Shown here piece by piece: positions 1 through 24,700 of a DNA stretch of 30,967 nucleotides. Source of the stretch: Yuukianura sp. NJ FZ-2021. Taxonomy: Eukaryota. The position numbers were made by a program, and so were the translations under genes. Numbering within the stretch: the stretch's first letter is position 1; each line of letters begins with the position of its first letter. The stretch is from assembly GCA_046563655.1 (NCBI GenBank), contig CM102285.1:15314001-15344967 (forward strand), in the 5' to 3' direction. A model generated the notes under the pieces. The model was given only the letters and a program-made list of their open reading frames with translations, was not told the DNA's origin and searched no databases.

Positions 1-1628
1 AGCCATCGCCCTCTCACACTGGAGATCCAAAGCCATCTCTACTCTTGGTCACCACATTCAGCTCAGGAATAACTCTGTCCTCAGCCAAGACTCATCTCTC
101 TTCGGCATCTTTGCAGTCATCGTGGCTGTTATGGCCATTGCTTTCTTCTACTTTGCCACTAAAGCATTCCTCAAACTCAGAACACTCACAATCCAAGTCA
201 ACTCGGGCAAAGCACAATTCATAGACTACAGGCAAGCAACTAATTCCTACTTTTAAAAACCATCTTTCTAATGTGCTGATGAATCTAAATTCAGAATCTA
301 ATCTAAAACGAATCTAAATCACAGGATGCAAATCCTCACTCGTTCCGTCATTGTTACCATCGCCACTTTGCTCACAGTGGTCACTGGCATTCTGCACATC
401 AACATGGAATCTCACTTGTACCACCATCTATTTGGACTCTTGGCACTTGTCACCGTGAGACCATCACATTTTCACTCTTTTTCTTAAAATAACTTAAGAT
501 TTGTATTAAAATATTATTATATTTATATTCTTAAATTATAAATATTTTTTTAATATTTAGGGACTGATTGTCTTTCTCTGCTACACCGTCAAAAGCGAGT
601 ATCCAATTCCACATCGTCTCCTCCACTACTTCTCGCAAGATCCATACTCTGACATGAGTGACCCCGACAAGTTGTTGACCATCAGAAGCGTGGACAGGGA
701 AAGACGAAGCCAGAGCAGAACTCCACAAAAAACACTGGAAAATGGACAAGTAGCCTCAATTCTTCTCCCACAAAATCAGTACATGACGGAGTCTCACCGC
801 GAGAGAACAACCACATTTGATTCCATCAACTCTGGACTGCTGAGTGAGGCTGAAACAACTATAGAAACCATCGGAGGCAGCTCCATCCTCTCCACATCCT
901 CCGGACGAAGGGATTCTTTGGCCATGCGCAGTTGTTCCGTCTCTGACAAACGACCATCAGTAGTTTCAAACGGAGTGTGCAGATCTCTCACGAATCCATC
1001 CAACATTACTTCTTCTACTCGTCCACTCCTCCATCAGACTCATGTTTGTTCCGGAGTTTGTCGGAGAGCTAGAAAGGAAAGATCTTTCTCTTGCGGAGGC
1101 GGAAGTTGTGGCCAAATCAAACCAGACAGAGGGCGTTGCCTCATTCGGGAAATCGAGGCGGCTGACTATGTGCTTCCTTCCAAGGGCCCCTCGGACACTT
1201 TACCACTGCAGACGCGCAAGGGCCCTCCTCTGCCCACTGATCTCTGTCCCACTGGCTACATGGATGTCGTCAACTCCAGACCTTCGACGGATCTAAGCAC
1301 CTTTGACCCCCAGTTCCTCAAGGGGTCTCCACTCAGACATGAAGCTCTCTACGAAAGTATCAAATATGAAAGTGTCAAGGGGTCCCTGCAATGCCCAACG
1401 AATGACCAAGTTCCGACTGTGAGGACTCCGTTTGTGACGAACGGAGTGCGAGGGGGCAAGAAGGACCCTTTGCCCCCCACTCCAGCCGAACTAAGTACCC
1501 TGACCAACCACTTTGTGACGAAGTCTGACCCGAATGTCAAAGCGACGCTCAGGAGACTTGACCTGCTGGAGAAGGAAGGGATGGGTGGATTCCGATCCAT
1601 TCCGTTTGGAGCCCAGAGCTTGCACTGA
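1..1628 (+). CDS. Adhesion GPCR, 3' part of left-arm copy (TM4 end to TM7 plus long cytoplasmic tail); exons <1-231, 325-454, 561-1628
   Basis: Spliced frame is continuous (...IDYR|MQILTRSVIVTIATLLTVVTGILHINMESHLYHHLFGLLALVT|GLIVFLCYTVKSEYP...GAQSLH*). It mirrors 9245-10866. The ORF-track start at 654 is internal. AATAAA lies at 1861-1866. Confidence 0.88.
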
Positions 1629-2189
1629 TCAGGGTCAAACAAACAGCCAAACTACTCCGAGCCAATGACGAATTATTTTGAGAAGCGATGCATAGTCTTA
1701 TGCATGGACAGTTACCTTATTCATATTTTCCTATTTAGTAAATTAAGTTAAAATGTTAAAATCCACAACTAGTCATTTGTACATTTGCTACAAGTTGCTC
1801 TATTTCTAAGTAGACGACGTTAGAAAGCCCTTGTTCCAATTGTGTCTGTGTCATGTTACCAATAAACTTAAATTCATGTCACTGCAAATCATTTCAACCA
1901 CTTCAATTCATATGCCTCAACAATAGTTTTGTCACTTTCAAAATGTATGTAAGGAAGTTTGGAATGAGAATCAAAGCTAAACTCCCAAGGTTTGCAGAGG
2001 GAGATACAAAAAATGTTTAGAAAGACGGAGACGAAGGGACTCAAAACAAACCAGACAACCTTGGGAGCAGCAGCTGATTAGTCTACTGCTTAACTTAATC
2101 AAAAATCATTAAAGTTCCTTACTTAAGAACTAATTAGTTTAGAAGTTGAAGTTTGTACTGACCTTTGACCTTGAGTGGAAGTAGGTGTG

Positions 2190-3135
2190 ATGTCTCGATC
2201 CAACAGTCCAGCTGAGAAGCGTTTGCAGAAGGAACTGATGCTCATGATCAATGAACCCCCTCAAGGGGTCACGATCGACACACAAGCGATGTCCAGCAAC
2301 ATCAGTCTGTAAGTCACTAGCTAGATTGTTGTAGATTGTGGAGGTCAGTAATTGATTTGTTGAATTTTAGATGGACTGTGCGGATGGTGGGTTCTGAAGA
2401 CACTTTGTACGCTGGAGAGTCACTTACACTTCAATTCAAGTTCTCAACCAACTACCCCTTTGACTCTCCAGAGGTAAGGGTCAAGAGTTCCAGTACCAGA
2501 TTCCAGAGGAATAAACTATTCAGTTGATCCACTGACCAAGTAATTGACGTTGTTTGTTGAAGGTGACTTTCGTGGGAGAGAACATTCCAGTGCATCCGCA
2601 TGTGTACAGCAATGGCCACATCTGTCTCTCCATCCTCACGGATGACTGGAGTAACTAAATCACAATCACAATTACAAATGGACTCCCTCTAACTTGTGAC
2701 TGTTTAGGTCCTGCGCTGTCTGTCCAAGCGGTCTGTCTCTCCATCGTCTCCATGCTCAGCAGCTGCAAGGAAAAGGTTAACAACTCAATTAAAAACCACA
2801 ACTTATTATTAGGCACTTCAGTTAAAAAGTTACACTTTTACAGAAGAGACCTCCCGACGACATGTTCTACGTGAGAACATGCAGCAAAAGCCCCAAGAAA
2901 ACCAAATGGTGGTATCATGGTAAGCACTCGACCATTTACTTCAAAAATTAAATTGAGTAAATTCAGTAATATGATTAAATATGATTAAGTCATAATATTA
3001 CCTACAATATGTACAACTAAATAATATCATAAAGTTATAATATTATTTAAAATGTTTGTAACTAAATAATATTACTGTTTCATAAAATTATTTCATCATA
3101 ATCCTATTATCTCTTTTCTAGATGATTCTGTCTGA
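2190..3135 (+). CDS. UBE2W: Ubiquitin-conjugating enzyme E2 W (left copy); exons 2190-2308, 2371-2473, 2563-2650, 2708-2775, 2844-2919, 3122-3135
   Basis: Spliced translation MSRSNSPAEKRLQKELMLMINEPPQG...FKFSTNYPFDSPEVTFVGENIPVHPHVYSNGHICLSILTDDWSPALSVQAVCLSIVSMLSSCKEKKRPPDDMFYVRTCSKSPKKTKWWYHDDSV*. HPHVYSNGHICLSIL and the WWYHDD end are UBE2W hallmarks. All introns are GT-AG with matching phases. Confidence 0.96.
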
Positions 3136-3544
3136 GCGGAACTACTGTGTGCCCTTATGTATTTTAAAAGAAGTTCACCTCGCAGCAGGATCACCTGCTT
3201 ACTAAGCATTCTAGATTCTCAGATTCGCACTTGGACATTCTTAGTTTTACGCCTAATTACAATAGTTTTAACGTAGATAGTTTTAGTTGACTCACTAAAC
3301 AAGACAAGTCAAACTTATCAATCAACTAAAAGCACTAAAGTGCTTGTTAAACGTTTTAAGCCACGCACCTCTTCTAGTTTTACGCTCCACGATCTCTCAC
3401 TTCCCTTCCACTCACTTTGAGTTTTAGACTAATTGGACTTGTGTAAATTAGACAAATTACTATCATTACTCTAAAGAAATGGTCAGGATTTGTGGACAAA
3501 TCTACACATTTAGTGTAATGAACTTAAATAAATCAACACTAACC

Positions 3545-4919
3545 TCACTTTTTCCATGCATTTCTCTTCCCTTTGAGACCACCAGTCGGTCTCCGCAGTT
3601 TCCTCCGTTCTTCGTGGTGCTTCCGGGCTGCAAGTCCATCTTTCTCTTTCAGCTACAAATCAAACAATTAAGTTAACACATAGTTAGTCATACTTCAACG
3701 GAATCAAGGCAATTCAAAGTTAAAAAATTCAAAGTTACCGATTTGAGTTTGAATGACATTTCACGGCTTCCGAGGGGTCCCTTCCACTTGACTCCCAATC
3801 CATCGCTTCCCTCTTTTGCAACGCGCTCTCCCAGTGACCTCTTGGACACTTTCGTCTTCTGACCGGAGAGGTCAGAGTGCTTGAACTCTTCTCCAGTCTT
3901 GATTTCGTAGAATTTGGGCTTGATTTCTGCCTGCGAATCTCGCTCCTTCTTCTTCAAAAGCTTCTGCTTCCGAGCATCCATCAATTCTCTCCTGTCATCA
4001 TCCGAAGAACTTTCCTCTTCAGAACTCGGAGCCCCCTCTGCCTCTTCATCCTTCAAAAAATCACAAGGATTCACAATTTTTAAGTCAACTCAAATTACTA
4101 CTTTGTGTCACATTTACCTCGACTGGGGCAAACATGGCTTCCAGTTTCTGTGACTTTTTCTTTTCCAGTTTGGACACAACAGGGTTGAGCAGTCGATATT
4201 CAGCAGCACTCTTGTCAACTTCAAAGTCCGGATTCGCAAACATGGCCTTGAATCGGTCGTCCTCCAGCAGATTTCCGCCTTTCTTTGTCTTCTCAGGCAG
4301 ACTGATCAACTTCATCGCCAACTCTCGGTTGACCTTTGGCAAAGTCTGCAACAGAAGCAGACATGGAATTAACTGACTTTTGACAATAATTACCACAGTT
4401 GTTTCCTTACGTTTAGTTTGACTCGGTTGGCTCTCTCCTCTTCCAGTTTTTCTCGAATCTTCCTCTTTTTGAAATCGTCAAATTGGAATGGCTGGGCTGC
4501 TGACTTGGCCTTCCTGTAGAGTCGCATGTCCAAGAAGTAGCCATGCATGTGAGCTCGCAGAAGGGAAGTTCCGATGAGATGACCAAGTCCAATCTCCTCC
4601 AGTTCTTTCTCAGTTACAAACTTGTAGTCGTCGTACAGAGTCTCCACATTTGTCTCTTCCAGCTCCTCTGTCAAGTTATCCAGGAAGGAACACCACCGAG
4701 GGGCAGGACCAAGACTCTAAACACAAACAAATAAACAAACTAATAATAAAAAATATAAAAAATAATAAATAAAAGATAAGTAAGAGTTTTGTTTGTTACT
4801 GGAATGTAGTAGGTCAAGATCTTCTTTTCCTCGTTGGCTACAAAGAACATTCCCGTGTTGGGAATTAAGCAAAGGTCGTTGAAGTCCGGTTCAGCCTCCA
4901 CCGCAGTAAATGGAGCACC
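3545..4919 (-). CDS. NOL10: Nucleolar protein 10, 3' half only (left copy, 5'-truncated at the palindrome apex; possible pseudogene)
   Basis: Five in-phase exons mirror the right copy, with [49 protein letters not shown] and NUC153-type LLEDDRFKAMFANPDFEVD. It begins at a splice acceptor (TTTTTGCAG) with no upstream exon. Confidence 0.9.
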
Positions 4920-4983
4920 CTGCAAAAACAAAGAAACACCTAATTAGTTTTTAATTTAATTAGGTGTTTCTTTGTTTTTGCAG

Positions 4984-6359
4984 GGTGCTCCATTTACTGC
5001 GGTGGAGGCTGAACCGGACTTCAACGACCTTTGCTTAATTCCCAACACGGGAATGTTCTTTGTAGCCAACGAGGAAAAGAAGATCTTGACCTACTACATT
5101 CCAGTAACAAGCAAAATTCTTACTTATCTTTTATTTATTATTTTTTTTTTTTTATTATTAGTTTGTTTATTTGGTTGTGTTTAGAGTCTGGGTCCCGCCC
5201 CTCGATGGTGTTCCTTCCTGGATAATTTGACAGAGGAGCTGGAAGAGACCAATGTGGAAACTCTGTACGACGACTACAAGTTTGTAACTGAGAAAGAACT
5301 GGAGGAGATTGGACTTGGACATCTCATCGGAACTTCCCTTCTGCGAGCTCACATGCATGGCTACTTCTTGGACATGCGACTCTACAGGAAGGCCAAGTCA
5401 GCAGCTCAGCCATTCCAATTTGACGATTTCAAAAAGAGGAAGATTCGAGAAAAACTGCAAGAGGAGAGAGCCAACCGAGTCAAACTAAACGTAAGGAAAC
5501 AACTGTGGTAATTATTGTCAAAAGTCAGTTAATTCCATGTCTGCTTCTGTTGCAGACTTTGCCAAAGGTCAACCGAGAGTTGGCGATGAAGTTGATCAGT
5601 CTGCCTGAGAAGACAAAGAAAGGCGGAAATCTGCTGGAGGACGACCGATTCAAGGCCATGTTTGCGAATCCGGACTTTGAAGTTGACAAGAGTGCTGCTG
5701 AATATCGACTGCTCAACCCTGTTGTGTCCAAACTGGAAAAGAAAAAGTCACAGAAACTGGAAGCCATGTTTGCCCCAGTCGAGGTAAATGTGACACAAAG
5801 TAGTAATTTGAGTTGACTTAAAAATTGTGAATCCTTGTGATTTTTTGAAGGATGAAGAGGCAGAGGCAGGGGCTCCGAGTTCTGAAGAGGAAAGTTCTTC
5901 GGATGATGACAGGAGAGAATTGATGGATGCTCGGAAGCAGAAGGTTTTGAAGAAGAAGGAGCGAGATTCGCAGGCAGAAATCAAGCCCAAATTCTACGAA
6001 ATCAAGACTGGAGAAGAGTTCAAGCACTCTGACCTCTCCGGTCAGAAGACGAAAGTGTCCAAGAGGTCACTGGGAGAGCGCGTTGCAAAAGAGGGAAGCG
6101 ATGGATTGGGAGTCAAGTGGAAGGGACCCCTCGGAAGCCGTGAAATGTCATTCAAACTCAAATCGGTAACTTTGAATTTTGTAACTTTGAATTCCCTTGA
6201 TTCCGTTGAAGTATGATTAACTATGTGTTAACTTAATTGTTTGATTTGTAGCGGAAAGAGAAAGATGGACTTGCAGCCCGGAAGCACCATGAAGAACGGA
6301 GGAAACTGCGGAGACCGACTGGTGGTCTCAAAGGGAAGAGAAATGCATGGAAAAAGTGA
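4984..6359 (+). CDS. NOL10: Nucleolar protein 10, 3' half only (right copy); exons 4984-5103, 5185-5490, 5556-5783, 5851-6165, 6252-6359 (~358 aa)
   Basis: All introns are phase 0 and GT-AG. NOL10/Enp2 motifs as above, then an acidic tract and a basic C-terminus (...HHEERRKLRRPTGGLKGKRNAWKK*). The N-terminal WD40 region is absent. AATAAA lies at 6393-6398. Confidence 0.9.
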
Positions 6360-6770
6360 GGTTAGTGTTAATTTATTTAAGTTCATTACACTAATAAATG
6401 TGTAGATTTGTCCACAAATCCTTCCCATTTCTTTACAGAGTAATGATAGTAATTTGCCTAATTTACACAAGTCCAATTAGTCTAAAACTCAAAGTGAGTG
6501 GAAGGGAAGTGAGAGATCGTGGAGCGTAAAACTAGAAGAGGTGCGTGGCTTAAAACGTTTACAAGCACTTTAGTGCTTAGTTGATTGATAAGTTTGACTT
6601 GTCTTGTTTAGTGAGTCAACCTAAACTATCTACGTTAAAACTATTGTAATTAGGCGTAAAACTAAGAATGTCCAAGTGCGAATCTGAGAATCTAGAATGC
6701 TTAGTAAGCAGTTGATCCTGCTGCGAGGTGAACTTCTTTTAAAATACATAAGGGCACACAGTAGTTCCGC

Positions 6771-7715
6771 TCAGACAGAGTCATCTAGAAAAGAGATAAT
6801 AGGATTATGATGAAATAATTTTATGAAACAGTAATATTATTTAGTTACAAACATTTTAAATAATATTATAACTTTATGATATTATTTAGTTGTACATATT
6901 GTAGGTAATATTATGACTTGATCATATTATTCGTTTTACTGAATTTACTCAATTTAATTTTTGAAGTAAATGGTGAAGTGCTTACCATGATACCACCATT
7001 TGGTTTTCTTGGGGCTTTTGCTGCATGTTCTCACGTAGAACATGTCGTCCGGAGGTCTCTTCTGTAAAAGTGTAACTTTTTAACTGAAGTGCCTAATAAT
7101 AAGTTCTACTTTTTGATTGAGTTGTTTACCTTTTCCTTGCAGCTGCTGAGCATGGAGACGATGGAGAGACAGACCGCTTGGACAGACAGCGCAGGACCTA
7201 AACAGTCACAAGTTAAAAGAAGTCAACATTTGTGATTGTGATTTAGTTACTCCAGTCATCCGTGAGGATGGAGAGACAGATGTGGCCATTGCTGTACACA
7301 TGCGGATGCACTGGAATGTTCTCTCCCACGAAAGTCACCTTCAACAAACAACGTCAATTAGTTGGTCAGTGGATCAAGTGAATCGTTTATTCCTCTGGAA
7401 TCTAGTACTGGAACTCTTGACCCTTACCTCTGGAGAGTCGAAGGGGTAGTTGGTTGAGAACTTGAATTGAAGTGTAAGTGACTCTCCAGCGTACAAAGTG
7501 TCTTCAGAACCCACCATCCTCACAGTCCATCTAAAATTAATAATCAAGTGTTACTTCGTCCAAAATCATTCTACAAGGAGCCAATTTGTGACTTACAGAC
7601 TGATGTTGCTGGACATGGCTTGTGTGTCGATCGTCACCCCCTGAGGGGGTTCATTGATCATGAGCATCAGCTCCTTCTGCAACCTCTTCTCAGCTGGACT
7701 GTTGGATCGAGACAT
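6771..7715 (-). CDS. UBE2W: Ubiquitin-conjugating enzyme E2 W (right copy)
   Basis: Mirror of 2190-3135, with ATG at 7715-7713 and TGA at 6773-6771. Splice sites are intact, and every coding difference I found is synonymous. Confidence 0.96.
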
Positions 7716-7993
7716 CACACCTACTTCCCACCAAGGTCAAAGGCCAGTAAACTTCAACTTCTAATTAGTTCTTAACTAAGGAACTTCAATTGATTATTGA
7801 TCAAGTTGAGCAGTTGACTAATCAGCTGCTGCTCCCAACCAAGGTTCTCTGTTTTGTTTTGAGTGTTGAGTCTCTCATCTCTCTGCGTCTTTTGTCTTTG
7901 GTTTCTCTTCCGTCTTTATACACTTTTTGTATCTCCCTCTGCAAACCTTGGGAGTTTAGCTTTGATTCTCATTCCAAACTTCCTTAATCCTTA

Positions 7994-8874
7994 AGGGCCG
8001 TTTATACCGGAGCTCTGGATGGATTTTCCTTCCACTGGACGTCCAGTCCAGTGGAAAAAATTTGTCTCGTTCATACCAGATTTTGGGGAAAGTGAGGGGT
8101 GGATTTTTTTTCCATGGATGGATTTTCCTTCCAGTGGAAAAAAAATCCAGGGACGCGGCTATGAACGCTGTTTTTCCACCCTGGATTTCAGAAAGGCGCC
8201 TGCCTTTCCATTCAAAGTTGAAATGTGTCAACAAAGAGTTAATTGCTGTTTTCAACAGCTGACAACATCAAAATAACTAATAGTTAACAATGGAAGACTC
8301 AGGAGATATCGAAGATTCAGAGAGCGTACGAATTATACCAGAACATTTTTTTCAGTATACATACAAGGACTAGCAATACTTGCACATGACAGATTAATTG
8401 TTACTCTCAGGTTAGCGCTAACCTCGTATTAGTAGGTTGAATTAAATGTTGATAAGTTGTTAGGCGTAATTCAATCTATTTACTTTGATTAATTATTTGA
8501 AATAGTAATTAACATTCCAAAAACTGTACTTTTGAGATTAGTTTCGTCATTCGAGCTTATTGTCTCAAAAGTTCCCATGTGTGATTGGGGCACACTGCAA
8601 ATTTGATGATCAATCCAGACCAAAAGTTGAACTGAGTCAACTTTTGGTCTGGATCGTTTCTCCCATCTCTCAACATTACAAGAAAATCCAGTGGAAAAAA
8701 ATTTCCATGGACGGATTTTTTCGGTGTGAACGATGGAAATCCAGTCCAGTGGAAAAAAAATCCACCCCAACTTTCTCTGGATGATCCATCCAGACGGATT
8801 AAATCTGGTATGAACGACTGGATTGCAGTCCAGTGGAAGGAAAATCCATCCAGTGGTCCGGTATAAACAGGCCT
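7994..8874. mobile_element. Non-autonomous DNA transposon (MITE), PIF/Harbinger-like, 881 bp
   Basis: TIRs of ~47 bp: AGGGCCGTTTATACCGGAGCTCTGGATGGATTTTCCTTCCACTGGAC versus the reverse complement of the right end, AGGCCTGTTTATACCGGACCACTGGATGGATTTTCCTTCCACTGGAC. TTA flanks both sides (7991-7993, 8875-8877). The empty site is in the left arm (TAA at 1950-1952). Subterminal TCCAGTGGAAAAAA repeats are present and there is no transposase ORF. Confidence 0.9.
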
Positions 8875-9244
8875 TTATACATACATTTTTTTTTGTACAT
8901 AACATTTGTACATACATTTTTGGAAGTTGCCCAAACTATCTACTGTTGAGGTATAGGAATGAATGTAAGTGGCTGAAATGCTTTCCAGTGACATGAGTTT
9001 AAGTTTATTGGTAACATGACACAGACACAATTGGAACAAGGGCTTTCTAACGTCGTGTCTACTTTAGAAATGGAGCAACTGTTGTAGCAAATGTACAAAT
9101 GACTAGTTGTGGATTTAACACTTAATTTAGTAAATAGGAAAATATGAATAAGGTAACTGTCCATGCATAAAACTATGCACCAATTCCAAAATAAAGTCAT
9201 TGGCTCGGAGTAGTTTGGCATTTGGCTGTTTGTGTAGACCCTGG

Positions 9245-12200
9245 TCAGTGCAAGCTCTGGGCTCCAAAAGGAATGGACCGGAATCCACTCATCCCCTCCT
9301 TCTCCAGCAGGTCAAGTCTCCTGAGTGTCGCTTTGACATTGGGGTCAGACTTTGTCACAAAGTGGTTGGTCAGATTGCTTAATTCGGCTGGAGTGGGGGG
9401 CAGAGGGTCCTTCTTGCCCCCTCGCACTCCGTTCGTCACAAACGGAGTCCTCGCAGTCGGAACTTGGTCATTCGTTGGAGAGTGTAGGGGACCCTTCACA
9501 CTTTCATATTTGATACTTTCGTAGAGAGCTTCATGTCTGAGTGGAGACCCCTTGAGGAACTGGGGGTCAAAGGTGCTTAGATCCGTCGATGGTCTGGAGT
9601 TGACGACATCCATGTAGCCAGTGGGACAGAGATCAGTGGGCAGAGGAGGGCCCTTGTGTGTCTGCAGTGGCAAAGTGTCCGAGGGGCCCTTGGAAGGAAG
9701 CACATAGTCAGCTGCCTCGATTTCCCGAATGAGACAACGCCCTCTGTCTGGTTTGATTTGGCCACAACTTCCGCCGCCACAGGAGAAAGATCGTTCCTTT
9801 CTAGCTCTCCGACAAACTCCGGAACAAACATGAGTCTGATGGAGGAGTGGACGAGTAGAAGAAGTAATGTTGGATGGATTCGTGAGAGATCTGCACACTC
9901 CGTTTGAAACTACTGATGGTCGCTTGTCGGAAACGGAACAACTGCGCATGGCCAAAGAATCCCTTCGTCCGGAGGATGTGGAGAGGATGGAGCTGCCTCC
10001 GATGGTTTCTATAGTTGTTTCAGCCTCACTCAGCAGTCCAGAGTTGATGGAATCAAATGTGGTTGTTCTCTCGCGATGAGACTCCGTCATGTACTGATTT
10101 TGTGGGAGGAGAATTGAGGCTACTTGTCCATTTTCCAGTGTTTTTTGTGGTGTTCTGCTCTGACTTGGTCTTTCCCTGTCCACACTTCTGATGGTCAGAA
10201 ATTTGTCGGGGTCACTCATGTCAGAGTATGGATCTTGCGAGAAGTAGTGGAGGAGACGATGTGGAATTGGATACTCGCTTTTGACGGTGTAGCAGAGAAA
10301 GACGATCAGTCCCTAAACACATTAAAAATATTTATAATATGAAATATAAATAATAAGAATATTTTAATACATTGAAATGTTAACTTATTTTAAGAAAAAG
10401 AGTGAAAATGAGGTTGACTCACGGTGACAAGTGCCAAGAGTCCAAATAGATGCTGATACAAGTGAGATTCCATGTTGATGTGTAGAATGCCAGTGACCAC
10501 TGTGAGCAAAGTGGCGATGGTAACAGTGACGGATCGAATGAGGATTTGCATCCTGTGACATTTACATTCAGATTTAGATTTACATTTAGATTTAGTTAGA
10601 ACGATGGTTTTTAAAAGTATGAATTAGTTCCTTACCTGTAGTCTATGAATTGTTCTTTTCCCGAATTGACTTGGATTGTGAGTGTTCTAAGTTTGAGGAA
10701 TGCTTTAGAGGCAAAGTAGAAGAAAGCAATGGCCATAACAGCCACGATGACTGCAAAGATGGGGAAGAGAGAGGAGTCTTGGCTGAGGACAGAGTTATTC
10801 CTGAGTTGAATGTGGTGACCAAGAGTAGAGATGGCTTTGGACCTCCAGTGTGAGAGGGCGATGGCTGCAGTCCAGATTGGCAATGCACTCACAAGGAACA
10901 AAGTGAGGACGAGAGTGAGAGTGGACATGGATCGGAGACAGGGGTACAAATCCAGTTGATTGGACAGTAAAATGACAAGAGGCTTCGTGAGTTGACTGGC
11001 CAGAGAGAGGAGGGTGAGGGAACAGAAGGCGGTAGACAGCCCAATGGACGACACCTCACTCTGAAATTCACAACAAACGACAATTAGCTAAATTGGTAGA
11101 AAAGGTAGAGTGCAAGTTATTTCATACTCTTAGCGACAGGATGACAAGATGGCTGAAGATGAGGGTGGAGCAGACGATGAGTTTGATTGTGTAGAGACTG
11201 TGTGGAGAAAAGTGGAATTCGATGTGGACGAGAATGCAGATGATAGTGAGTGAACATCCAGCCACTAAAACGACTGTCCCCAGGATGAGTGACCAATGCA
11301 TGCTCAAGGTTGTTGGGGGAGGAGCAGTCTGGAAACAGTGCAATTTTAGTTTCTAGTTTAGTTCGACTAAAGTTAGTTACTTCTTACCAATCCAATGTCG
11401 GAATGGAGAAGTGCAAATTGACCAAAGTGTTCGCAAATGCACTCCACTGTTCCGTTGTCCACAAATTGATTGGGCGTGCATGCGTTTGGAGTCCATGAAA
11501 TTCCGTTGTCATTCCTCAGACTTTCCATTCCTCCGCAACTGAAGTTTTTCCTTGATCGCACCATAATTTCATCCCTCATTGTTGCGGGAAGTTTGAAAGT
11601 GAGTTTGAGAGGAGCAGAGTGCGTGTACTTCGGCAGAGACTGCGAACTGATGGAGATGATTGGAGATGCAACTCGGAAATGATGGACGAAAGAGCCCTTC
11701 GTTTGTGGAAAAGCGATGACGCTCATGTTTCTGAAGGCAATGAAGACGAGAATGGCTCCTTCGTTGACTCGACTTCCGTTGACACTCATTGGAATTTGAA
11801 GGGAAAAGTCCGAGGCCCACTGGATTCTACTCAGAGGAAATCTGTAGGGATGGCCAAATGGAGAGGAAGCAATTTGCAACTTTTCCAGAATGAAAACATC
11901 CGATTCCCAAATGAAAGGATTCGTCTCCCTAAAAACACAACTTTCACTCAAAATCAGGCAGAAAAGATTCCAAATTCAAGATTTGAAAAACTTACGTGCG
12001 GAATTTTGTTGCCATTTTTCTTAGGAGGTGTCCGAGTGCTACAACGCTGCTTTGATGTGAGCAGGAGGCTGGAAAGCGAAGAAACAGGGCCGTTGCGTTC
12101 ATGAAACTCCGCATGAAGAGATCATTCGTTTTGTCGACGGCCTGCGAACATACACATTACACAAGGTATAAATTGAAATTGTTCCACTTTTTAAATTTAA

Positions 12201-15200
12201 TTGAAGATGTTACATCTTTTCTGTGAATTGCATAATTCCCAATGTCTGTGAGCACTTCAATCACAGTCTCCCCTTCTCCGACATACAGAAAACTCTTGCG
12301 ACTCAGATAGTTGATCAGCTTTTGCGTCAGTAGGAATATCTGCGTCTTGTTGGCGAATCCCATCCTTAGAATTTGGAGCTGAAATTCAGAAATTATTCAT
12401 TATGAACTTTTGATCTCTGGATAGAAGTAGAAAGGCATGAGGAAGCAAGAAATGAGAGCACAATGCAATCTATGCACTTTTATGAATCTCCAGCTAAAGG
12501 AAGAGTTTCCTCAAAACTTTTCTCGCTCAGGTGAAAATTAGTGGAGAGCTAACAAGCTAATTAGGAATTCGGAGACGCTGTACTAATTCTTTGTAAACTT
12601 GTTACAGGATCCTACCAACACAATTGGGAAACTTTAGAAGGAGTTCATTAAAAAGAGGATGAAGTTGATACTTTGGTAAGATGGATTACATGTTTGGTCA
12701 ACTCTCTGAGTTCTTTGGCGAAGCATTTGGAGAAATCACTGTGTCCCCATACAGGACTTCCATCTTGCTGTTTTTGACACGTTCTTTGTGCAAATCCGAG
12801 GAAGCCATTGGGACACCATCGTTTGGCCACTTGGCCCATGGCTGTTCTATTCCACGGAATTCCATAGTCGTCGAAGATCTTTGGGCAGAAGCTCAAGTAG
12901 CGTCGGTCCAAAACACGGACATCAATGGACGTCTGGTTCCATCCTACGAAAACAAGTAAGCAACATTTGAACATTGACATAATGCTTTCTCTCTTGTTGA
13001 ATTTATGCTAACCTGCAAAGTTGGTGACTCGACAAGTGTAAGTGGCAGAGTGTTGTGCTTTGCCAATGCGAAGGAGAGATCCATAAGGGTACAGATCTTC
13101 AATGACCTCGTTCGTCCAGTGACCTCTGTCACGAATCACACTCCCATCCCGCTCCCAAATGTAAGAAAAGTTGTGCTTTGGCGTCTCGTTCTCAGAAACA
13201 CAAGTAATCACTTGGTCCTCTTCATCCTTTAAACAATTATAATTTGAATTAGTTCATTCAATTAACAAGTTAATTACAGTAATTACGAGTTCAATTAACC
13301 AATTAATTGATTAGAATAATTAACAATTCAATTAATCTTCTCTTTTCTTTTGTTTTCCCTATCATATCATATGTTTTGGTTTTTTATTTTGAAATTCAAA
13401 AAGTGGAATTTGGCGGGGAGAGTGATCACGTGATGCGATGGCGTCTCCCGTCTCTTCATGAAAAAGATCCTTCCATTTTCTCCCTCTTTGTCTCCCTCTT
13501 TTTTGTCTCTTCTTTTTTCTCTCCCTCTTTTTTTTGTCTCCCTCTTTTCAGTGTTGTTGAGTGACCTCAGTTTCTCTTTGTTTTTAAGGGAGGTCACTTC
13601 GTGTCAGTTAACTTCTACAAGTACTCACCTCTTCCAGTGTCACACTCATGGGATCCACCAGGATATACGGAGGGGCAACTACTTCAACAGTTATCTCCAG
13701 ACATTGTTCCTCCCCCATGTCAGACACCTAATAGAAACACAAGTTCAGTTCCATAGACATCTTCCAGTAGCTAAAGTTTTCCAGCAGTGTCATGTCTCAC
13801 CTCACAAGTGAACACACCACGGTCCTCCAGTGTCGAAGAAGTGAACATAAGAATCGACTTTCGCACGGACTTCGGAAACACGTAAGACTGCTCGTTGATT
13901 TCTCTATTCAACAGTTACATTAATCTTAATTACTAATGTCTACTTTGTCAAAAATGGGCAAAATAGTACCGGGTTGCGAGTGTTTTGTCAATCGGAAGTC
14001 CCTCTTTGAACCATCGGAACTTGACCGTGGCTGATCCTTGAGCTTCGCAGTGGAGGTCAAAGGCCTCCCCAACTTTAAGAGGAGCTGGAGCTCCACTCCT
14101 GAACAACTTCTGGAAACAGGAAAGAAACGACTGAACATGGACAAAATGGAGGCTTGTGTGACTTACCGTCAGTGTGAGAGCTGGATAAGAGTTAATCTTG
14201 AATGTGTCGCTCAATTGCTGGATGGGAAAGAGTGGTCCAGAGGTAAGTGGCTTCTTTACTAATTCTTCCCTTCCCAGCTCCTCATGCGGAGCAAAGTACT
14301 GGAAATTAATCGTGGATGCAATGCTGCAACGTCAAAAATAGACTTAATTAATGGACATACGTCAACAAAGTACCTCACATTTTGATATTTAACGTCTTTG
14401 CTCCTTATCTTAAGTTGTACTTGAGTAATAGCATGGTAGTTACCCGAAAGAGACGACTGCTACGCTCGTGTCAATCCCTTCGAGTCCAGGGACTTTGTCC
14501 AGTTTGTCTCTAATTGCTTTCTCAATTTCTGATTTGAGCTTCCAGTCTGCCGCTGGAATCTGTTCTCGGTCTGACCGAAAGTCCCTGACTGGCAACTCTT
14601 CAAATGTTTGCAACATCACTTCGAACCGCATCCATCCAACACCTTCGTACAAACACAAGTCATGACAACTTCAACCAATAAAAGCCACTGTGGACTGACC
14701 TTTGGGTATGCTTCTGCCCTTGTGACAGGAACAGGGACGATGAGCACTCCCAGATTCGTCTCCACAAACTTCGTCACATTCTGGACCAGGACACTCTACA
14801 AGTAGCAGACAAGGTAAGACAATTTCTTTATTTCTAGACTACAAAATTTTTCTGGAACTGGAGCAGGAAAATAGTTACTCCCTGCAGTTCCTAGCTTCCA
14901 TTCCAAGTTTAAATTTATTTAAGCTCCTGATTCCGCATTGCAATTACCTAAATTGGCTAATTTACTTTCACTCAACCATTCCCTCCACTTGTGCTTTCTA
15001 ATTTGTAAGATATGGTCTGTGAATAGGGACACTTAAGACGTTGTCTTGATGACTTTGTGGCGCCTTCTAATCCCTTAATGCCTTCGCTCGTTGTTAGGAA
15101 GCTTTTGGGAAGTAGTCAAAGTTCAAGGGTGTGGGAAAACATTCCAAATCCCTTTGCCTAGAATAGAAATAGGGAGGAAAGTGCAGGAGATGAAGAGAGA

Positions 15201-17724
15201 TGGCTTTTCCACTTCCAGTTTCAAGGTCAGTAGAAAGTTGTTGTGTGCACTTGGCTTTGCATAACTTTCTCCAAATGGAACTTAAGAGTTTAGGAGGGAA
15301 TGGGGACAGGAAATCCTCACTTTACATGCACACAGGTTCCTGCGGAGGGAGCGTGTCAATGCAAGGGAACTTCTCTTTCCAATCTTTTTCATTCCGAAAA
15401 ATTGTGAGAGGAGAAAGTTGTTTGATGTACCTTTGACAGCAGACTCCAGTTTCACTCCGCACAGAGGTCCACCGTATCCATTGGGACAAAAGCAAACTCC
15501 CACTCCAGGGGCCTGCATCCTAAACACAAACTCACAATTAAAATCCACTTTCTCTTCAAAGTCCAAATCCACTTTCATCTCGGACTCTAAACAGACTTTC
15601 ATCGTTTCATCTTTGAATTCAAATTCCTTCGCTTTGAACCTTTGTTTTTGGATTTGTGATTGAACCACAATAAGGGAGGCTGAGAGGAGAAGGAATTGGA
15701 AGTGAAAGTCAGAGGAATAATTTCCAAAAGTCATTTCGGAAAGAATAATTTGACTACGGAGACTTCTGATCCACAAAGTTGGTTGTTGTATCGCAGGGGG
15801 CTCCTAATTTGAATTTCCCAATTCCACCATCTCCTAGTGAAATTGTGAGTGGAGAAAGCGGAATTGTGAATGAATTTGAGTTGTGACTGATGTTTGAGTA
15901 GCTGGAAGTAGTTTCTACTAAAGTCTAGGCGTTTCTATAAGTACAAGTTTTAAAATTGTTGCTTTCCCTTTTGAGGCACTGGAAGGTGGATTGTGGCTGT
16001 GAATGTGTCAGGACCAGCAGTTGTCTGGGCATGTCAGGAAGCAAAGTTGCTCACTTTTTAATTCCTCAAATTAGGAGAACGTCCCATGGACTTTTGCTCA
16101 TTAGCACCTCAGCCTCCAGTGGTTCTCTTCTTTCAATTTCTAATTAACTCCATGTGCTCCACTTTTCCAAAATTGAATAAAGTAGTTTTCCAGCGGAATC
16201 CTTGGATTCTGGATTCAGTTAGAAGAAGGTATGAAAACTTAATGGCTAAACCTCCATCATCTGTCTCTTTGTCTCCTAAGGCCACTTTTCAACTTGTCCA
16301 AAAGTGAAGTGGTCACAAAGTAGAGCTAAAAGGAGACGTCAAGCGGAGTGAAGGGAATTACAAAGTCCATTCAAGTACATGTGCCCAGGGAAAGTCCCTC
16401 AAATCACTTTCACTTTCTCAGCAATTAGCACCATTTCAAATCCACTTGTACAAACCGCACTACGCTTTCTCTAAACAATTTGTGTCGCGTCAGATGCTTG
16501 AAAGGAATTAGTTGAACAAAACTGAAAGGAAACGAATGATTTTAGCGGATATGAATGTGGAAACTACCTAAGAATCTAACTAATAATGTTATGGTTGTCC
16601 TACATGCGATTACTGTAAATTCCATTTGTAAATGTTCTGCTTGTATATTGATGCGTATCAATTATGTACAATCTACTTGTGCTGATTTTAGTGATTCATT
16701 TCAATCTTTTACAGTCAATTCAATATTCTGCAATAGGTGCAGAGCTTGACTTTGACGTCGAGAGTGAACAATGTCAAAGTGACAAACAAGTTAAATGAAG
16801 TCGTAAGGGAAAAGGAGATTTAGAATGAGCAAGTGGCGTCGACAGACAGTCAATAGAAATTGGATATGAGAGTGGAAATGACTCACTTGCAAGTTCCTCC
16901 GTTGCGACAGAAAGTGACATTGTAGCGGGGGTCACAAGTCTCGCTGTTGTACTCGCAGTAGTCCCCATGTCTCCCCTCGTAGCAACTGCAACTGAATCTT
17001 CTGCAAATATTACAACTAATTTCAAAAACTAATTGGATTTAAATGAATTAGTTCAGAATTTAAGAGTAATTGACCTGTAGTCACTGGAGACGTGGCAGTC
17101 CCCTGCATAAGAGCAGTTGCTCACACTGCAACTGTCTCTCTTCTTGAAATCCTGTTCGTGGATTTGTTCATCCACGATGGAGTACGTGATGTTGAATCCG
17201 TAAGTGTGGAGGAAGTTGGTGGCTCGGAGATGTCTGGCGTAGGGAGTGTGCAGTTCCAGTTGAATTCCGAGGAATCGCAGTTCAGTTGCGTAGGCCGACA
17301 CGATCGTCGTGGAGTTGGAGTCGTCTGAGACGAAGCGAGGGATTGGATGTCTGCTGAACCCGGTGTCCACACCCTGTCTTCTTACGGAGTTGTGTTCGTT
17401 GTCCTCCATGTCTTGTCCATTGGGGAATGGGTACTTGATGTAGTCAGTGAAAGTGAGATTCTCCTTGAGGTAAAGTTGCGTCAAGTAGACGCGAATTCTC
17501 TTTCCGTTGCTGAAGTGGTTGGCAGAAGTGTTGAAGATTGTGTATGGTTTCTGAGAGTCGATGAGCCAGTGGATGCAGAGCGGTGTTTGGAAGGGGCGTG
17601 GGAAGTTGCGTGTTGCGATGACTCCGTTGGGTTCTGTGAGGTGGATGAATGTTGGTTTGTCGCAGACAGAGACACATCCGTCCAGCGTCAAGAGGAAAGT
17701 GGCCAACACCACAGTGACCCTCAT
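9245..17724 (-). CDS. Adhesion G-protein-coupled receptor-like protein, 18 exons: signal peptide-CUB-EGF-EGF-Cys-rich-SEA-like-Ig-Ig-HormR(HRM)-GAIN/GPS-7TM-long tail
   Basis: I spliced it manually and phases agree throughout. Exon 1 (17075-17724) has signal MRVTVVLATFLLTLDGCVSV plus a CUB (NGVIATRNFPRPF...CIHWLI...GFNITY). EGF exons are 16887-17000 (FSCSCYEGRHGDYCE...CRNGGTC) and 15431-15519 (CFCPNGYGGPLC). Ig1 is LHCEAQG...WFKEG...EDRGVFTCE and Ig2 is ITCV...WERDG...ATYTCRVTN. HRM is CPK...WNRTAMGQVAKRWCP...RTC...WGHSDFSKC and the GPS is WTPNAC...ECICEHFGQFALL. Seven hydrophobic segments lie in ~10290-11300. The SEA-like call is the least certain. Confidence 0.88.
13472..13550. repeat. Intronic C/T-rich low-complexity tract (TTTTTGTCTCCCTC-like units)
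   Basis: Degenerate repeats of TTTGTCTCCCTCTTTT inside an aGPCR intron. Confidence 0.6.
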
Positions 17725-21785: not shown

Positions 21786-24700
21786 TTAGACAAAAACTTC
21801 AGTTTTAACGGAAGGATCTTGTTCGGTTTGGGGTTGATCTTGATTTTTGGACGTCATGTTGTTATTGCAAAAGTCAGCTTCAGTGTTGGTGCACTTGTCT
21901 GATGAATCACTTAGAGTAGATTGAGACACAGAATGACGCAGTTCATCCGGAAGGGAGTTTCTGCGCTGACGAAGGGGCACTGCAGTCTCCTCGGCAGAAG
22001 TCTGTCTTTGCATGGACGCTTGACTCGCCTTGGAAGTCATCCCTTTCAGTTTCTTGACCATCAGTTCCTGCTTCTCCTTGGACAGTCTCCTGCCGTTGTG
22101 TTCTCTTAAGGGCACAGTCCTCAAGTACTCTGCCTTGGCATCACTCACTTCAGAAATCGTTTGGTAGGGGTCGTCACTGTCGCTTTCACTCGCCCCTCCG
22201 TCAGTAGTGGACTGGACGACACTGTCAAGGGCTCTGAGAGCTGCATTAGGACTCGTTTCACTTGAAGATGAGGATTGAGGGGGGAGGGGTGGTAACTGAG
22301 AAGTGGGGGGCGGGGGAGAGGCTTTTCTGGGGAAGATGGAGGACGTGGTGGGGTGAGTGCTTTTGGAACTTCTGTTGGTGGAGCTGGTGGAGTAGGGAGA
22401 GCCATCGCCCTCCTCGATGGGACTCAGCATGAGGTGGGCCTCAGACAGGTCAATGTTGGACGGAGGTGGGGAGGGGATGAGCTGAGTCTGTTTTGGTTGT
22501 TGATTTGGATGATTGGTTTGACTCCGTTCGGAATTCCATTGGAACTGACTGCACTGAGGGAGTAGACATTTGGAGTGACGTTGTTGTTAGGAAGTGTCGC
22601 AGGAGATGGTTTGACGTTGATGTTCTTGTGCAGTTTCCCTGCGAGAGGAATGTTGTCTCCACCAGGGGTTGTTAGGCTGATTTGCGTTTCCTTTGCTACG
22701 TCAGGCGTTGGGACGCGTGGTCTGGAATGACAAAAAAAAAAATTCAAAAGTTTAAAAAACAACTTGAAGTTAATTTGATTTACTAAATTCGTAATTTACT
22801 GGTAGAGTTAGAATGGTTTTAATGAGAGAGGTTAATGACTGTGTCATTTGGAAAATAGAGTGAGGCCAGCTAGTTCATTTAAACTTTAATCGGTTGCATG
22901 TTTGATTCTTCAAATAAATGTAGGTCGATCATTTGCGAAATGAGAAATGGAAGTGTTGTACCTTGCTTGTGGCGTCAAGAGTGTGTCCATGGGCGGTAGA
23001 CTGCCATTGGGTAGAGCCCTTGAAGGGACCCTTGGTGCGCTTTTGTCCTTGGATGAGCGACGATTCATGAGTTTGTCGTAGATGGACATGCGTTGTCCCG
23101 AGTTCTTGACGACACTAGGCAGTCCGCCGTTGTTGTGTAGCTGGTGCACTCTGTTTTTCCCAAAGAGAGAAGAAGAGGAAGAGTTGGAGCGAAAACTCTC
23201 GACTCGCGACAGTTGGCGCTGAATCCACGTCTTCCGGTTGTCACCCAACGGAGACTCGGCCACACTCTCCTGTAACCACAAATTCATTTGTAACTTTCTC
23301 CGAAAAACTTTTGTAGAAAAAGTGTTTTTGGTGGAAAGTAGTACCAGATCAGCATAGACTTCGTCCGGGATGACGCTGGAGTGTCTCTTCCCTGCTGGGA
23401 GGTTGTCGTAGACGGATTCACTAGCTTTGATTTTCATGGAGGCCGTTGACCCCTGCGGTTCTTTCCTTCTGAATTGACCTGAAGCGTGGTTGTAGGGCAG
23501 TTCTGCTGGAACGACTTGCTCCCAATACTGGTCTCTTAAAAGTTCGGGATGCTCCTCGTGCATCTCATCCACCACCATGTAGGACACCTAATACACTCCG
23601 AGTTAATTCCTGTGTTTAGGAAGTGGTCAAACCAGTTAGTTACCTGAATGTGTCTGTCGATGAGCCAGTTGAGTTCAAAGTCATCGTCATCTTCTCCGAA
23701 GGGGTTGATGAGCGTCTCTGCCACTTTGAGCCATCCCACGTAGAAGATAAACTGAAACAGACACACATTTCATCAAAATACGACGCTTTTCTTAGAAAAC
23801 AAAGTGCGTTTGGGATTTGTTGGAATGGAATGTGGAGAAAGTTCGAGTTTTTGAGTACCTGAAGTGAGAGGAAGATGGGGAAGTAGAGATCCAGTTCGTA
23901 TCCTGGGTAGATCCTCGTCCTACTTGCGTCATCATCCGGATGAACCCATTGCCTGCCGAACAGAGCTGCGATGAAGTAGGTGTACACTGCAAGGGTCACG
24001 ACCTAAAACAGACAAATTGAAAATGTTTCCAGGGGGGACTTAAGACTTAAGGGTACCTGAGTGTAGACGAGGGGCACGCTGACAGTGTCGTAGATCATGA
24101 CTCTGCCCAGAAGGCGTCTGAAGTCAGACAGTTCCATGATGATGGTCTGGAGCATTTGGTCCGACTGAATCCGCCCTTCGAGTCTCGCTCGGTTGACCAA
24201 GTTGGAAGCCCACACTGTTGGCATCCAGAACTTGGACACTGTCGTCTTCTCCTCAAACTTGTCAAAGATCTTCTTCTCACTCTCCATCATCAGACCTACA
24301 AGTATTCAAGGACAGCATTAACAAATTTAGCAAGGACGCACCCCAGATAGACCTGTTTAAAACTTGTTGTTTCACTATGAGGCAACAAAAATATTTTTTG
24401 AAATTTTCACACTGGACTTTTAGAATTTCTCGGATCTCGTTGAGAAACTTATTTTTTGTCAAATTCCAAATTTGTTTTCTCCTTTTTTTTAATTTTTGCG
24501 ACGCTTCACGCCATTCCGAAGAGGAAACTCAGAAACTGAACCCAATAATTTTTTCCTCCCCCGAAGGAGGTTTTGTTTGTCAAATTCTATTTTTTCTCTT
24601 ATTAGATTCTGCCCTTAAGAGGCGGAAATGCATTCGCAAATTGTTTTTTCTTTTTTTTGACTGTTGATGACGTTTGAACGTGAAAGAATAGAGGGATTGT

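Follow-up and report, generated by a model that had tools for sequence, protein, structure and literature searches.

A multi-gene palindrome with allelic arms in the Yuukianura sp. NJ FZ-2021 assembly is very probably a false inverted join of two haplotigs

Architecture and gene content of the palindrome

The stretch of DNA studied here (hereafter the window) comprises 30,967 nucleotides of contig CM102285.1 in the assembly GCA_046563655.1 of Yuukianura sp. NJ FZ-2021 (positions 15,314,001 to 15,344,967 of the forward strand), and begins with a palindrome in which the 3' part of an adhesion GPCR gene (aGPCR), UBE2W and the 3' half of NOL10 recur in mirror image. Its two arms differ from each other in the manner of alleles, and contigs from public sequencing runs leave the sequence of the window exactly at its apex. 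These observations lead us to regard the palindrome as an assembly artefact, very probably two haplotigs falsely joined in inverted orientation, and not as a real chromosome structure.

An initial annotation of the sequence had described mirror-image arms of at least 4.9 kb around a 10-nt spacer, and this geometry was recovered by repeat analysis, BLAST and global alignment alike. Positions 1-4946 mirror 4957-10866 around the spacer, with 15 collinear inverted-repeat pairs tiling both arms and two main BLAST blocks, one proximal to the apex (2039-4946 versus 7864-4957, 96.0% identity) and one distal to it (1-1951 versus 10866-8909, 92.3% identity). As the left arm leaves the window at position 1, 4.9 kb is a minimum length. 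The parts of the palindrome are:

1..4946, no strand: left arm, haplotype 'L' (repeat analysis, BLAST and global alignment; the same haplotype is linear in the run contigs described below)
4947..4956, no strand: spacer of 10 nt, GTTTTTAATT (repeat analysis, and comparison by eye with the continuation in the run contigs)
4957..10866, no strand: right arm, haplotype 'R', joined seamlessly to the remaining window (repeat analysis, BLAST and global alignment)

Global alignment of the arms gave 4907 aligned columns with 235 mismatches (4.8%; 117 transitions and 118 transversions), 27 indels and one block of 926 bp that is present in the right arm only (7987-8912). The overall identity of the arms is 95.2%, falling to 79-89% in distal non-coding sequence, while the 154 nt flanking the spacer on either side are identical between them, the first difference being at 4792/5111. 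The self-complementary hexamer TAATTA forms the last letters of the left arm and the first letters of the right arm. The entire window (1-30,967) is free of N's, and no direct repeats of at least 60 nt were found in it. A chance origin of the mirror was rejected, given that 5 kb at 95% is too much for coincidence and that the window holds no comparable direct repeat.

The gene names given in the initial annotation were corroborated by Pfam and by homology. NOL10 is identified by the NOL10_2nd (2.7e-26) and NUC153 (1e-12) domains, along with the final positions of the N-terminal beta-propeller; UBE2W shows a match to UQ_con; and the adhesion GPCR shows a GPS match below the Pfam cut-off. Exon models were then built from splice sites and homology:

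3545..4919, minus strand: NOL10 3' half, left arm (exons 4919-4800, 4716-4411, 4345-4118, 4050-3739, 3652-3545; residues from about 303 to the stop, AG/GT sites intact)
4984..6359, plus strand: NOL10 3' half, right arm (exons 4984-5103, 5185-5490, 5556-5783, 5851-6165, 6252-6359; from Pfam, tblastn and splice sites)
2190..3135, plus strand: UBE2W, left arm (six exons, 2190-2308, 2371-2473, 2563-2650, 2708-2775, 2844-2919, 3122-3135; complete open reading frame of 155 aa)
6771..7715, minus strand: UBE2W, right arm (six exons, 7715-7597, 7530-7428, 7338-7251, 7197-7130, 7061-6986, 6784-6771; protein identical to that of the left arm)
2..1628, plus strand: last three exons of the adhesion GPCR, left arm (2-231, 325-454, 561-1628; from homology and splice sites)
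9245..10865, minus strand: last three exons of the adhesion GPCR, right arm (10865-10636, 10552-10423, 10312-9245; the gene extends upstream past the arm to about 14.3 kb)

The reading frames are intact on both arms, and the 13 intronic donor and acceptor sites that were mapped on both arms are all canonical, bar a single aGPCR donor. This donor reads GC at 232-233 of the left arm and GT at 10634-10635 in the same intron of the right arm, and is thus an allelic GC-AG / GT-AG splice-site polymorphism.

The position of the apex relative to NOL10 is of particular significance. When a full-length springtail NOL10 (P0004, 668 aa, a protein match with 79% identity over the query exon) was used as a tblastn query, residues 303-668 aligned on each arm, whereas residues 1-302 gave no alignment anywhere in the 30,967-base window. 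The exon that starts at 4984 has its acceptor 27 nt downstream of the boundary of the arm, which places the apex within a NOL10 intron. It follows that both copies of NOL10 lack the 5' half and are broken in the same intron. The nearest relatives of this NOL10 are arthropod sequences, at 79-80% identity.

Another NOL10 sequence, P0001, which gives a score of 289 bits, was considered as the window's own protein and rejected. This sequence belongs to an unrelated gene model from a fish, at 64% identity and with an internal duplication, in a record flagged UNVERIFIED_CONTAM; its bit score is doubled because the NOL10_2nd block of about 100 residues is present twice. This duplication looks like another artefact, in a different assembly.

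Divergence between the arms

The arms were compared codon by codon, with path-averaged step counts and a binomial test against the neutral expectation. The changes are distributed as follows:

aGPCR tail: 43 synonymous, 16 non-synonymous; dS 0.136; dN/dS 0.11
UBE2W: all 9 of 9 changed codons synonymous, 0 non-synonymous; dS 0.098
NOL10 half: 9 synonymous, 3 non-synonymous; dS 0.040; dN/dS 0.09
All three genes: 61 synonymous, 20 non-synonymous; dN/dS 0.092

The synonymous excess among the 81 coding changes is highly significant (p=2e-23), and it is also seen in the truncated NOL10 halves taken alone, where 9:3 is observed although synonymous changes would be expected to make up a share of 0.217 (p=1.2e-4). 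Coding sequence has diverged by 2.7% (81/2970) as against 8.0% (154/1937) for non-coding sequence. For UBE2W the path-averaged count is 9 synonymous steps and 1 non-synonymous step, owing to the CGT/AGG codon, though the two proteins are identical. The initial annotation had reported only synonymous changes in UBE2W, which holds, but its list of eight codons was one short, as it missed GTC/GTG at codon 27; its count for the NOL10 exon 5185-5490 (8 synonymous changes and 1 non-synonymous change) was reproduced exactly. The acidic stretch of NOL10 additionally shows an in-frame 3-nt indel between the arms at 5867-5869 (EEAE-GAPSS versus EEAEAGAPSS).

The arms therefore look like alleles of functional genes rather than a fresh copy. 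Given that selection at the protein level cannot act on a NOL10 fragment lacking residues 1-302, the divergence must have accrued while both copies were whole genes. The dN/dS of 0.09 and the 9:3 ratio of the NOL10 halves thus sustain the suggestion of the initial annotation that each arm had evolved as an intact locus prior to the join, and nearly all of the divergence between the arms predates the junction.

Contigs of public runs at the apex

To obtain a view of the locus independent of the assembly we turned to public sequencing runs. Five of them match 41-52% of the sampled words in 4900-14899; all are stored as contigs and none is RNA. Four of the five come from one sample (S1), and the fifth (X4) belongs to a separate study with a different organism label. 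The contigs of three S1 runs (X1, X2 and X5) and of X4 were placed on 4887-16886, and the statements below cover the listed contigs and their loose ends, i.e. contig ends that run on beyond the aligned part. Depth is a single figure per contig and carries no copy number, and contigs show presence and not absence.

The most informative is an X1 contig of 2,434 nt (depth 231), of which positions 1602-2434 align to 4957-5787, while its first 1,601 nt match nothing in the examined stretch and form a loose end before 4957. In X5 too there is a loose end at 4957, of at least 189 letters, with the same 30-letter consensus as in X1; a search of the window that allowed as many as 3 mismatches gave 0 matches to this consensus. 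A site-by-site check showed that the contig with the loose end, though aligned to right-arm coordinates, carries the left-arm letter at all 12 of the 12 listed sites between 5111 and 5458 that distinguish the arms. Hence, the left-arm haplotype is an ordinary linear locus that passes the position of the apex without folding into the right arm. The initial annotation had named reads that run on from each arm into the NOL10 5' exons as a mark of mis-assembly; a continuation past the apex was seen for the left-arm haplotype only (1,601 nt in X1, at least 189 nt in X5).

Among the listed contigs none bridges 4947-4956, a statement that concerns contigs only and a listing that omits 738 pieces and 109 loose ends. 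The first depth bin of X1 (190.7) equals 330/400 of the 231.2 of the single contig, which leaves nothing else at 4887-4956, though this is no evidence of absence.

The other haplotype is likewise represented in these runs. At 5117 and 5190, X2 shows the left-arm letter for a depth of 30.9 out of 46.5, the remainder being the letter of the window, and position 5944 is split between the runs, with the left-arm letter in the X1 contig and that of the window in those of X2 and X5. These mixed letters indicate that sample S1 holds both alleles. Past 10866 a difference of about 1-13% between run contigs and window persists, and a second haplotype thus extends beyond the visible end of the arm. At 11078-11131, just outside the visible arm, a contig in X2 and X5 has 75 other letters for 52 letters of the window, an indel-type difference that belongs to the second haplotype.

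A transposon restricted to the right arm

The 926-bp block that is present in the right arm alone is a mobile element:

7987..8912, no strand: 926-bp block, a MITE-like multi-copy transposon with terminal inverted repeats (TIR) of 48 nt at 7993-8040 and 8828-8875

The block also carries sub-terminal repeats of the type TCCAGTGGAAAAAA. Summed contig depth over 8087-8886 ranges from 219 to 11,509 in the four runs, as against roughly 40-300 in most bins of the flanks in X1, X2 and X5 and mostly 1-7 in X4, and several distinct flanks occur as loose ends of run contigs at the borders of the element. This excess depth together with the multiple flanks implies that the transposon is multi-copy. The left arm presents the empty site, and the joint 7986->8959 occurs in contigs of both X1 and the independent X4, with 38 intervening letters identical to the empty site of the left arm. 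The target-site duplication is ambiguous, and the element is therefore given here without a superfamily.

A false join of two haplotigs

We therefore favor, with considerable confidence, the interpretation that two haplotigs were joined head to head by the assembly process. The initial annotation had rated an artefact at least as likely as a real fusion, and the departure of the left-arm contigs from the sequence of the window exactly at 4957 lends support to this rating. The arms have the allelic character expected of such haplotigs, i.e. 4.8% mismatches, a dN/dS of 0.09, presence/absence of a transposon and both forms in S1. When the final ten letters of the continuation were reverse-complemented and compared by eye with the spacer, 8 of 10 letters were identical, followed by divergence. 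This match suggests that the spacer still belongs to the left haplotype's own sequence, and we accordingly place the false join at 4956/4957, beside the TAATTA motif. Copies of TAATTA in the 30-letter continuation could pair with 4941-4946, but since two substitutions and a 1-nt indel would be required to fit the apex of the window to such pairing we offer this microhomology purely as a suggestion.

The likely course of events may be reconstructed as follows. The starting point would be a heterozygous animal with two diverged haplotypes of a single locus ordered aGPCR - UBE2W - NOL10. The seed of the join was probably a fold-back chimeric long read, in which a strand is followed by its own complement after a loop of about 10 nt at TAATTA; whole-genome amplification, missed SMRTbell adapters or template-complement read-through are possible sources of such a read. 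As a single folded molecule gives identical arms, a second step is needed to explain the allelic ones: past the chimeric read, reads from one haplotype would have served to extend and polish one arm and reads from the other haplotype the other arm, resulting in arms that look allelic. The assembler would thus have retained both haplotypes and fused them head to head in the NOL10 intron, so that the reversed L runs into R. In the true genome each haplotype would lead on past the exon at 4984 (or 4919) through the intron and then, presumably, to the 5' exons of NOL10.

Several observations weigh against this interpretation or limit its reach. Of the two haplotypes, the left-arm one alone showed its natural continuation, and both runs in which it did so (X1 and X5) belong to S1, which may or may not be the assembled individual. 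X4 has depth 0 at the apex and is silent on the junction, supporting the empty transposon site only. More generally the evidence consists of contigs, and a molecule bearing the junction may exist beside them. That the continuation leads to the 5' exons of NOL10 is something we infer from the 30 letters that are shown, and we likewise infer both the fold-back mechanism and the sorting of haplotypes between the arms; no adapter sequence was found at the apex. Finally, divergence increases away from the apex, both in non-coding sequence (1.7, 2.1, 11.4, 11.4 and 21.1% in successive kb) and at synonymous sites (dS of 0.040 in NOL10, 0.098 in UBE2W and 0.136 in aGPCR). Gene conversion between the arms near the center of a real palindrome would yield the same gradient, though it would equally be expected from regional variation in heterozygosity, or from homogenisation of the draft within the span of the fold-back read.

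Alternative explanations

If the junction were real, it could represent a recent fusion of two homologous haplotypes on one molecule, produced by an inter-homologue template switch or by end-joining in the NOL10 intron, a scenario that we consider improbable. The allelic character of the arms would fit it, as would the location of the junction at a short self-complementary AT-rich motif capable of mediating such a switch in vivo, and the contig data leave room for molecules that bear the junction. Against it, the left-arm haplotype continues linearly beyond the apex at ordinary contig depth, and the fusion would strip the 5' half of NOL10, normally an essential ribosome-biogenesis gene, from both joined copies. 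The linear left-arm contigs would then have to stem from a third copy, or else from cells or individuals of the sample other than those with the fusion. Such a fusion would amount to an allelic palindrome of iso-dicentric-like form, a structure that was at one time put forward for ameiotic genomes, and the sole well-known precedent has been withdrawn as a scaffolding artefact (PMC8494291). An older inverted duplication with paralogous arms, in which the UBE2W and aGPCR pairs were both kept under selection, gene conversion acted at the center and an intact NOL10 persisted elsewhere, is in our estimation the least probable of all. It would account for the outward gradient of divergence and for the intactness of both copies of UBE2W and both aGPCR tails. 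Yet under it the NOL10 halves would be pseudogenes, which is at odds with their synonymous bias and with the preservation of all five NOL10 exons and their splice sites on both arms; moreover, known converting palindromes have arms far more alike than the 95% seen here, and the left-arm sequence is linear in the contigs derived from reads.

Two further kinds of real palindrome fit poorly with the divergence of the arms. One maintained by gene conversion should have near-identical arms, whereas these are 95.2% identical, drop to 79-89% in distal non-coding sequence and differ from 155 nt off the spacer onwards; a fresh fold-back inversion or breakage-fusion-bridge event should yield identical arms, whereas the present ones differ by 235 substitutions, 27 indels and the 926-bp insertion. 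There is also the matter of how an artefact would have arisen. Two haplotigs ending in the AT-rich intron might have been merged by a scaffolder, a gap-closer or an end-overlap merger with no fold-back read being involved, which we consider unlikely, though clearly less so than any of the real structures. The general evidence for an artefact, namely the truncation of NOL10, the allelic divergence and the run contigs, applies equally to this route, and in the rotifer case the palindromes were put down to phased haplotypes having been scaffolded wrongly (PMC8494291). It is countered by the lack of N's in the window, and by the exact mirroring of the arm ends around a 10-nt loop with 154 identical nt on each side, which is the signature of a single folded molecule.

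Relationship to known palindromes and implications

Genuine palindromes, such as those of the primate Y chromosome and those reported in Folsomia candida and Botryllus schlosseri, resemble the present one in having inverted gene-bearing arms and a short spacer. The arms of the primate Y palindromes (P1-P8) are more than 99.9% identical, compared to 95.2% here. Further, reads cross the real palindromes, whereas here a read-derived contig departs at the apex. The palindromes of B. schlosseri passed checks of depth and with CRAQ, a structural-error tool, and illustrate the vetting of real ones (PMC12448946). A survey of parthenogenetic genomes lists palindromes in Adineta vaga and F. candida, and reports the proposal that palindromes permit gene conversion in non-recombining genomes while warning of mis-assemblies in such lists (PMC7953838).

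Closer parallels are found among artefacts. Uncollapsed haplotigs likewise place both alleles in a pseudo-haploid assembly, where the copies diverge by a few per cent, are polymorphic for insertions and keep their genes intact; however, they usually form separate contigs, whereas in the present case a single contig holds both, fused in inverted orientation. The palindromes in the 2013 draft of A. vaga (AV13) were attributed to erroneous joining of phased haplotypes in the chromosome-level assembly of 2021, which drew on long reads and Hi-C (PMC8494291). As in our case, that draft had multi-gene mirror blocks with allelic arms, but the present join is seamless, its loop measuring 10 nt and no gap of N's intervening, which points to a chimeric read rather than to scaffolding. 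The present organism is also a different one from that rotifer, as it lacks a close protein match and its NOL10 is nearest to arthropods. Palindromic long reads, generated by phi29 whole-genome amplification or by missed SMRTbell adapters, are described in the Pacasus report as causing inverted duplications in assemblies that are gone once the reads are split (PMC6218980). Such reads present a strand followed by its own reverse complement, as here; yet one molecule gives identical arms, and the arms of the present palindrome are 4.8% apart.

As biology the palindrome is hence most likely unimportant, and its value is that of a flag for assembly quality control. Under the favored interpretation the contig carries a false inverted join together with a duplicated haplotype. 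In annotation NOL10 would appear as two 5'-truncated genes, and UBE2W and aGPCR would be counted twice. Synteny-based screens for palindromes would register a false positive, a risk of which the survey warns (PMC7953838) and which was demonstrated for the earlier rotifer claim (PMC8494291). Conversely, were the junction real, allelic palindromes would be revived as a mark of life without meiosis.

Neighboring sequence

Upstream of its right-arm exons the adhesion GPCR gene can be followed on the minus strand over 10632-14331, with a sub-threshold GPS match at 11373-11975, an HRM match at 12648-13007 and weak, sub-threshold Ig-like matches at 13948-14331. Downstream of the aGPCR in the window lies a bestrophin chloride-channel gene, seen as two adjacent open reading frames on the minus strand (23640-24305) with matches to the Bestrophin family at 7.2e-24 and 1.5e-07.

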